A DNA stretch of 62,667 nt, filler included, from Hausera hauseri (lineage: Eukaryota): NCBI GenBank assembly GCA_046269625.1. It is 9 parts of 9 records of this genome, joined end to end, with 100 filler letters (N's around TTAATTAATTAA, not from the genome) between each part and the next. Parts side by side here need not be neighbours in the genome. Positions count along the whole stretch, not along the records: positions 15,016 to 22,725 come from JBJURY010907422.1; 8 more parts are not named here. One strand, 5' to 3'. Shown piece by piece: positions 17,340-20,300 of the stretch. Both the position numbers and the translations under genes were made by a program. Below the pieces are notes generated by a model, which was not told the origin of the DNA, ran no database searches, and worked only from the letters and a program-made list of their open reading frames with translations. Position 1 is the first letter of the stretch. Every line of letters begins with the position of its first letter.

Positions 17340-20300
17340 CAAAACAACAGACGAGGTTGAAAGTGAATTCATTGGCCCACTAATACTCAAGATAACGAAA
17401 AATAGGGGTAAAAGCCCTTTACTTAGGAGAAGGTCGGGAACTAGTTCACGATCCCCTATTAAAAAGATTTAAAAAAGGAGGAAGACTTCACCATCACCTT
17501 AAGAGATGAAACGGAGTTAAATACTCCTGGCGTTCCGGAAACAACTTCGAATATCGATGAAATTAATGAAATATGTCCATTCCACCTAGTGAAGAGGAAC
17601 CAGAAGAAAAAAGACCTATTAAGTTTGGGAGGATTAGAAAATCTGAAAAAGCACAAGCACAGAGAATAACACGTGCTTGTCTTCTCGAATTAGATAAGTA
17701 TAAAAAAGAATTCAACTACAAGAAACATAAAAAGTTGGCAAAATAAATTAGAATTATGTACAACGAGTGATATCGATTTTACAAAAATATGGTGGAATAA
17801 AAACGAACCGTTTCTTGACCAGGTTAATCAAGCGAAAGAGCTGTTAGACACACTTAAAAACAACCAAAAACTAAAACGTGTAAGGCGTAATTTAGAAGGA
17901 TTGATGGACGAGATTATACGAGTGATAATTCCTTATCTTCATAACAAACCAGTATGCGAACTGACTAATGCCGACTTAAAGATACTGAATATTAACCAAA
18001 TCGATATTTCCTTTCTAATAGAAATGTGCAGCTTAATAAAAGATAAACCTCGGAAGTACCCAGGTTTAAAAACACGTATTGAAAGAGAAAATAGAATACG
18101 AGCCAAGATTAGCGACTTAAAGATCGATATAGTTCACCTTGAAAAGGCAGAAACACAGAGAATAATACGTGCTTGTCTTCTAGAATTAGATAAGTATAAA
18201 AAAGAATTCAACTACAAGAAACATGTCATAACATTTTTACAAGGACCAGATCACGAGCTAAAAGAAGCTCTTGGGACATTAGACGAAATAATCTACGCTA
18301 AACCGGCAATATCTAAACAAATAAGAAAGTGGATAGAATTTTTGCTTTCCATAACAGAAATAATAAACGAAAGACTAAGAGAATTCGCTATGGTTGAACC
18401 TATAATGAGACACTAATTGGAAGAAATGTTACTAGATATCGGTATGATGGAAGACGAAGCGAAATTGCGAATTAAATTCGAATCATGCCGAGAAATTGAA
18501 TTTATGAGCAGGGATCAAAATCAAACAACACTAACAGAGATATATAGTATACTAGAAGAGAAGGAGTTCTACAAAAAAAGAAACAAGCTACATGATCTCC
18601 AGCGAAGATTAGCGAACATACTTTGGGAAGAAATACAGAACATAATGCAGAAACCGTTGAAGGAAATCTCGGCACAGGAAATAAAACACTAAAAGTATGT
18701 AATGATTACCAGATTGCCCTGGCGCAAACATTACAATATTTACAGTATCCAGCAGAATGGATACAATGTTTTGACCTACAGTGCCACACCGAACTAACGG
18801 AAATTAAAAAGGATCCTCACTTGACATGCGATGAAGCCAAATTCATAGGCAGGCTAATGGACGCAATAGATACGGATGCTGAAGTATTAAATCAAATGCA
18901 CAAATTAGTCCTACTATTAACAGAAATAGAAAAAATTGACGAAGTAGTAGATGAACAACTAATAAATCGAATACGTCTGGTAAAAGAAACCCGGTTACGC
19001 TCCGAGAAAAGACAGCGCGAGCTAAGCGAATTGTTGACAGAAACAAAAGTTTATAAGAACAAGTATTCCCTTACGGAATCTGAAATTAATGACAAAATGG
19101 AATTTATGCAAAGATGGCAAGGAGACAGAATCGCAGAAGTAACTAGCTATCAAGAGAAAGCCTTGATACAACCAGAAGAAATGTGCCGATTAATAAAAAG
19201 GAGACAACAAACTTGCAGATACGGAAATGGGTTTAGGATATCCATAATGAAAACATTGCAACCATAGATAAGAAAACTGCGCGAAATAGTCCAGGTTGGC
19301 CACGCGGCATTAATGAACTACGGGTTACCTGACGCGGATAATGATGCCGAGTGGGATGAATACCTCCAAGGTTTAAACGATCAAAGTCAAAGAACTCCAA
19401 TACAAATTTATGAGTCACCTATTGGTACCCAGAAGACGAAATTCGACGTGCAAATGCTACTTTATCCCACGCTAGCTGAAAAGGAACTGAGCAGTGTATT
19501 GAAAATAAACATAAGTGAAGATAGGTTAAGGAAATTGATTCCAACCTTGACCAAGCTATCCAGTGAAAACACCACATACAGCGCTGTACCAAAGCTCCTA
19601 ATAAGAGAATATGCCAAATTGTTGAAAAAAAGCTAGAAGCAGAAATTAAAGTGAATGTATCATCCGAATGGATGGACGACGAGGAATTTGAGTGCACTAC
19701 CTAACCATCGTTGGGGATATAAAACAGCGGATAATGGAGAAGAATGGTAGGAAAGAAATTAATTACCGACTTTATTTCAGGGGCAGGATATTAGACGAAC
19801 TAGAATCCTTGACAGACGTAGGGATCGAAGAAAATCGAATAATAGCAATAATCGCCAGTGAGCAAACCAAAGATGAAGCCATGAGAAAGGCACATACAGA
19901 GCATTGCGTTGGAAGAATCATTGGATATTCAGGATGCCGCAATGTATTTCGAATACTTACAGACTGATGATGACAACCCGAAATACGATAGGAACTTAGT
20001 CCATCTAATCGAAACCTTACCACCGATGAAAGCGAAACAACCGGTCGGAAGACCAAGAAAAATAAAAAAAATTGACTATAATGCAAACCTAATTAGGGAA
20101 TTGAGACAACTATCGGTACCAACCCCGAGTTCAGATAACTAAGAACTAATTGAGCTAATGAAAGACCTAATTAGGATAGTCAATTATAGCGAACTCCAAG
20201 GTGAAATATTATCCGAGAAGGAAAGACTAATATATAATATAGCTCGGACAATGAAGACTTCACGATTTAAGTTATCTAAAAGCACCCTCCCTGACAAAAC

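Follow-up and report, generated by a model that had tools for sequence, protein, structure and literature searches.

One contig of the analyzed window contains the 5' part of a decayed retroelement in which a ubiquitin-like domain (Ubl) is encoded between gag and an envelope gene. The window is the whole stretch of 62,667 nucleotides of Hausera hauseri DNA, filler included, and it consists of nine contigs with eight artificial N linkers between them; because these are separate contigs, adjoining contigs in the window are not to be taken as genomic neighbours. The copy is broken by stop codons and frameshifts, and it is a decayed member of a highly repeated retroelement that carries an envelope gene. 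We favor, with a probability of about 0.7, the reading that gag, an accessory region containing the Ubl and a gB-type envelope gene (env) likely formed one polyprotein, that pol is likely to follow shortly after the point where the contig ends, and that the Ubl is predicted to be a docking surface that is not conjugated.

The coordinates of the features are collected in Table 1. On the + strand of contig 15016-22725, the order is gag, the accessory region with the Ubl, and env. From position 16216 to the end of the contig, one frame contains no or one stop codon in most of the 300-nt bins, the exceptions being the bins in which the frame shifts. This stop-poor frame, which leads from gag into env almost unbroken, therefore fits a single long reading frame that has decayed. 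A terminal direct repeat was not found within the contig, in which just one end of the element is present.

Table 1. Positions in the window of the features of the Ubl-containing element and of a related element located on another contig.
Feature	Position	Strand	Basis and remarks
Contig with the 5' part of the element	15016..22725	+	N linkers at both ends; ends inside the env tail; 30 of 30 bins covered by contigs of run X1
gag, with a capsid-like part, a linker rich in Asn and Arg, a single degenerate zinc knuckle (16918-16962) and in-frame stops	16063..17331	+	Pfam
Accessory region, ~1,000 codons (~3.1 kb), with stops and frameshifts	17400..20520	+	Most 300-nt bins have a frame with almost no stops
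Part of the accessory region with one distant homologue	18896..19357	+	P0001, 34% over 154 aa; the alignment passes through an in-frame stop
Ubl strands 1 and 2 (probable)	19639..19701	+	By eye, in the frame preceding the break near 19700
Ubl, C-terminal two thirds	19704..19856	+	PF00240 match, PDB alignment, Atlas neighbours
AT-hook-like or nuclear-localisation-like basic motif PVGRPRK	20041..20061	+	GRP core at 20047, ~62 codons after the Ubl
Hydrophobic stretch, probably an internal signal anchor	20560..20616	+	Hydropathy 2.0; in frame with the final accessory piece and with the beginning of env
gB-type (class III) envelope glycoprotein gene, broken	20599..22725	+	PF24664; tail runs off the contig
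pol of the related element, directly after its env	44437..47530	-	RVT_1 71.9, RT_RNaseH_2 108.3, rve 39.8 bits
env tail of the related element, on another contig of the window	48085..48471	-	tblastn 26% over 129 aa, E 1.1e-9; PF24664 35.8 bits

The assignment of gag is based on Pfam matches to Retrotrans_gag (E 4.4e-4) and zf-CCHC (E 2.6e-3), both of which are below the cut-off. A possible second degenerate zinc knuckle, seen by eye at ~16696-16740 (+), has no Pfam match. The accessory region that follows is probably helical, and apart from the Ubl it gave no Pfam match above the cut-off; a Pfam search at E<=10 revealed no MATH, BIR, ankyrin or Bcl-2 domain. A single-sequence model made to check for a Bcl-2 fold was poor (pLDDT 36) and gave no match at E<=0.001 in a fold search, so that it speaks neither for nor against such a fold. 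P0001 is the sole homologue of the accessory region among 1.84 billion representatives (E 4.6e-14), and it is a singleton encoded on a contig of 2,157 nt. A word-seeded search for longer proteins with the accessory piece 17694-18413 returned none among 1,658 candidates, which is weak evidence, and the same piece gave no usable Atlas match. The initial part of the accessory region contains an 85-nt direct repeat (94%), the copies of which are located at 17644-17728 and 18140-18224, 496 nt apart.

The preliminary description had claimed an internal Ubl that lacks the terminal di-glycine and had proposed an HMM search with ubiquitin-clan models. This search gave a match above the cut-off: the frame piece 19692-19964 matches PF00240 over bases 19710-19853 with 27.4 bits against a cut-off of 25.4 bits (E 2.9e-6, Pfam), and the match spans residues 7-54 of the piece, which correspond to profile positions 21-68 of 72. 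The SUMO-like family PF11976 scored 17.1 bits on the same piece, against a cut-off of 23.8 bits. The alignment with residues 23-69 of ubiquitin is gapless, with 12 of the 47 positions being identical as counted on the PDB alignment, and hydrophobic residues are present at the core positions. Tyr occupies the position of Ile44, Arg that of Lys48 and Ala that of His68. When the alignment is extended, positions 75-76 are Thr-Lys, and hence the terminal di-glycine is absent, as had been described. A total of 252 distinct PDB sequences match the Ubl at E<=1, and the 60 listed are ubiquitins or ubiquitin-like proteins; single natural domains gave E-values of 0.01-0.2, and the very low E-values stem from polyubiquitin repeats. 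The Atlas neighbours of the Ubl also belong to the ubiquitin clan, with values of 0.83-0.87 that are under 0.9 and are to be read as a lead only.

The match covers the part of the domain located between two frame breaks, near 19700 and near 19925. The N-terminal part (~19639-19701), which probably encodes the first two strands, matched no Pfam family by itself. The part after the first break was folded from the single sequence and reached a pLDDT of 52; ubiquitins ranked first in a Foldseek search with this model, none of them at E<=0.001. Because the model of the truncated piece is poor and the fold search gave no significant match, the predicted beta-grasp is inferred from the sequence. Together, these comparisons support a genuine, integral and non-conjugatable Ubl inside a retroelement polyprotein.

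The domain had also been likened to the Ubl of Rad23. A Rad23-type shuttle factor contains an N-terminal Ubl with an Ile44 patch, and in addition a UBA domain. The Ubl described here resembles such type II domains in being embedded in a larger chain and in lacking a terminal di-glycine, and thus its integral nature stands. The comparison goes no further than that, as the domain is internal rather than N-terminal, has a Tyr at the Ile44 position and is not followed by any UBA family that Pfam detected at E<=10.

The env gene, with stops read as X, matches PF24664, the Monjiviricetes fusion family, with 148.6 bits (E 2.2e-43), and it encodes a membrane anchor near 22231-22287. Its start is in frame with the last accessory piece, and in this copy two stops intervene. 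The env piece gave no PDB sequence match, and a word-seeded search for longer proteins found none among 5,046 candidates (weak evidence). Locus scans of viral contigs for the element yielded no locus in 11 and in 268 stretches. The sole locus obtained in an env scan of 83 stretches (L001) is a 38-residue match in a small ORF without retroelement context, and we rejected it as a chance match.

Other copies of the element are present in sequencing run X1. A total of 14,961 contigs of this run align over contig 15016-22725, covering all 30 bins including the one with the Ubl; X1 is one run of one study, is possibly the source of the window itself, and contains 41% of the sampled words. Of these contigs, 823 are at least 99% identical, 2,341 are 95-99% identical, 5,809 are 90-95% identical and 5,988 are below 90%. 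This coverage implies that the decayed copy belongs to a family with many members in which the Ubl region is represented. No RNA data set was listed as containing the sequence, which says nothing for or against its expression. Next to each of the two breaks that flank the Ubl, at least 11 X1 contigs show a length difference. Among the indels listed, the differences amount to 80.6 of 582.5 depth units at the first break and to 548 of 634 at the second. Given this small share at the first break, most copies cannot be assumed to have an intact Ubl. Two of the nine in-frame stops that were checked fall at positions where nearly all of the X1 depth differs, among the 40 places listed. The preliminary description had named conservation in other copies as a check on the Ubl; in X1, the bin with the Ubl has coverage similar to that of the bins beside it.

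A second claim concerned an AT-hook located about 60 codons after the Ubl. The motif PVGRPRK is indeed present at about this distance, in a different frame from the Ubl and behind the second break. Its GRP core is flanked by basic residues, but a Val instead of an Arg precedes the GRP, so that the RGR core is lacking, and the AT-hook family is absent from the Pfam listing at E<=10. AT-hooks have been defined loosely as a GRP core accompanied by basic residues and prolines, with the RGR core being the part that enters the minor groove, as far as the source covers them (PMC11354804). The claim therefore holds for the GRP core, its basic flanks and its position, and not for a canonical AT-hook; the GRP motif could equally be a basic import signal.

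Where pol is located determines how the accessory region is to be read. The preliminary description had placed an accessory protein where pol would be expected. The ~3.1 kb between gag and env have the usual place and size of a pol gene, and neither Pfam nor a motif search detected signals of RT, RNase H, integrase or protease in them; in addition, the last 425 nt of the contig contain no protease motif, and pol was never seen joined to the Ubl-bearing family itself. All of this would fit a non-autonomous element composed of gag, accessory region and env, which is copied by the enzymes of another element and in which the Ubl region lies where pol once stood. However, the related element in the window, whose env is 26-30% identical to that of contig 15016-22725, has its pol directly after env. 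Its RT, RNase H and integrase all score above the Pfam cut-offs, and the order is protease motif, RT, RNase H, integrase, with the protease-type DTG motif at 47516 having been identified by eye and having no Pfam match. The distance between a landmark in env and this DTG motif is 587 nt in the relative, whereas contig 15016-22725 is cut inside the env tail, 336 nt past the matching landmark, and hence ends ~250 nt short of the relative's protease-motif position. Because 336 nt are left where 587 nt are needed in the relative, the missing pol is explained by truncation. The env-then-pol order is also in print, as described in the sources concerned (PMC13524379; PMC6431247), and elements of the GAG-ENV-POL type with a gB-type envelope are reported to occur in nematodes, bryozoans and flatworms (PMC13524379). 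We therefore do not uphold the proposal of an accessory protein in place of pol; pol lies probably just beyond the end of the contig, after env. Since the env-then-pol order comes from another family, a pol-less element keeps some probability, and we regard it as unlikely. Its most far-reaching form seems highly improbable: a high-copy, pol-less satellite that keeps env, has swapped its enzymes for a new protein of 1,000 residues in which a ubiquitin mimic serves as an encoded budding tag, and spreads by means of a polymerase borrowed from relatives of the env-pol type that share its genome.

Two further alternatives concern the accessory region itself. The Ubl lies between the two frame breaks, where the region is most disturbed, one X1 contig carries 133 other letters in place of positions 19629-19761, and no homologue with the Ubl was found either in a word-seeded search for longer proteins (none among 79 candidates, which is weak evidence) or in a locus scan of metagenomes (none in 478 stretches). 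A host ubiquitin-like sequence that was recently inserted as a passenger into one or a few copies, and that has no role in the element, would account for these observations, but not for the summed X1 depth of 7,226 in the Ubl bin, which is similar to that of the neighbouring bins, nor for the at least one X1 piece of 436 nt that begins upstream of the Ubl and extends far into the domain. Moreover, the core positions are kept at an identity to ubiquitin of only ~25%, which points to a long divergence under constraint, and the Burro elements are described as having a Ubl at the same place (PMC6431247); we give such a passenger hardly any credence. The accessory protein might instead be a nuclear factor, whose GRP motif would bind AT-rich DNA or act as an import signal and whose Ubl would recruit chromatin or SUMO-pathway factors, guiding integration or relieving silencing. 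The motif, with its basic residues and prolines, fits the loose definition of an AT-hook (PMC11354804), and the pattern GRP[RK][RK] has a single match in the six frames of the window and arises in ~2% of 300 composition-matched simulations, the pattern having been selected after the motif had been seen. This post hoc choice counts against the explanation, as do the presence of just one copy of the motif, the negative Pfam result for AT-hooks and the lack of the core that enters the minor groove (PMC11354804), and we consider a nuclear factor improbable.

According to the mechanism that we propose for the gag-accessory-env polyprotein, gag, accessory region and env would be made as one chain, possibly running on into pol, and unbroken copies would contain one continuous frame. 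By means of the hydrophobic segment at 20560, env would be inserted into the ER membrane, with Gag and the Ubl staying in the cytoplasm, and the protease of the element may release the parts of the polyprotein. A ubiquitin-like domain without the di-glycine is neither conjugated nor clipped in the way ubiquitin is, so the Ubl would act as a surface. The role that we favor, tentatively, is that this surface docks host ubiquitin-binding factors involved in trafficking or turnover at the assembling particle. A purely structural or folding role is possible and, in our view, somewhat less likely; proteasome shuttling and chromatin tethering with the GRP motif are both doubtful, and equally so. Ubiquitin fused to the Gag of a foamy virus is reported to promote ESCRT-dependent budding that depends on Tsg101/ALIX (PMC2958808). 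The docking role has to be viewed with caution, because the substitution of Tyr for Ile44 and of Ala for His68 weakens canonical binding to ubiquitin receptors.

A layout of gag, accessory region with a Ubl, env and pol has already been published for the planarian Burro elements. As described there, ORF1 of Burro encodes Gag, a Ubi2/SUMO-like domain within the accessory region and an in-frame env, followed by protease and pol (PMC6431247). The element described here resembles Burro and the GYPSM1 giant gypsy elements of planarians in having a Retrotrans_gag domain with a zinc knuckle and a long accessory region with a ubiquitin-clan domain (PMC6431247). In both, a mononegavirus-like fusion protein comes after the accessory region, which in the published Burro structure is in frame and ahead of pol (PMC6431247). 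The accessory region here differs in being ~1,000 codons long without detectable MATH, BIR, Bcl-2 or ankyrin domains, a difference to be read with the fact that those of Burro were, according to its description, found in part by HHpred, and that the search here was by Pfam. Furthermore, the Ubl here scores higher to PF00240 than to the SUMO-like PF11976, and one zinc knuckle was detected here as compared with the two or three described for Burro. We do not file the element as a member of Burro, given that no MATH, BIR, ankyrin or Bcl-2 domain was detected and that pol and the size of the element are not established.

The gB errantiviruses are similar in that they are multi-copy and have a gB-type env after gag (PMC13524379), and the relative in the window shows env and then pol. 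The word ubiquitin has no occurrences in the main text of that source (PMC13524379), whereas a Ubl is present here. Anakin, a mosquito BEL/Pao element with a chuvirus-like glycoprotein, has an envelope of the same broad class, according to its description (PMC7642597); the gag described here differs in being of the Retrotrans_gag type, and not of the DUF1759 type seen in the BEL element of the window. No retrotransposon Ubl other than that of Burro was found in open-access text, and Repbase, Grohme 2018 and Jurka 2007 may describe the family. The copy adds a compact and sequence-distant example of the gag-accessory(Ubl)-env arrangement, with an accessory region that is nearly free of relatives (one match in the 1.84 billion representatives) and a Ubl that resembles ubiquitin more than it does the SUMO-like family described in Burro.

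Another contig of the window, which has a 77-nt terminal overlap, carries a BEL/Pao element (48600-58389, -). The gag of this element (DUF1759) begins with a Ubl that ends in a di-glycine, at ~49810-50033; this domain matches PF00240 with an E-value of 0.0055, below the cut-off, aligns to positions 12-76 of ubiquitin/NEDD8, and is possibly cleavable, like the ubiquitin in fusions with ribosomal proteins. No similarity was detectable between the two Ubls, their comparison giving a score of 23 that 1,218 of 2,000 shuffles reached or exceeded. Downstream of the BEL pol, the region 50548-53476 (-) contains three long ORF pieces of 328, 431 and 170 aa without a Pfam match at E<=0.1. The region 5781-14915 (+) contains Gypsy-like pol fragments, recognized by eye, followed by a membrane-protein-like ORF at ~8100-9438 and then by an 814-aa ORF with a RING finger (PF13639, 27.7 bits). 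The Ubl of the env element, the GG-ending Ubl of the BEL gag and the RING ORF, all in one window, amount to a repeated capture of ubiquitin-pathway modules, which suggests that the elements may engage the host ubiquitin machinery. This idea is already in print for Burro, as far as its published description goes, and the copy is therefore a further example and not a new principle.

The contig with the related element (40501-48499, -) contains the env tail, pol and then a broken membrane-protein ORF at 44214-42716; a small ORF at 41510-41848 on the same contig and strand looks exonuclease-like by eye and has no Pfam match. Another pol is present at 36428-40400 (-), its DNA being 66-67% identical to that of 40501-48499, and upstream of it no match was found with the env of contig 15016-22725 as the query. 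At 29808-30533 (+), a fragment of a leucine-rich-repeat gene (LRR_5, E 8e-6, below the cut-off) lies beside gypsy-like fragments. Finally, two related DNA polymerase B-like regions with ~74% DNA identity are located at 119-3438 and 58609-61346 (-), and they are probably Polinton-like.
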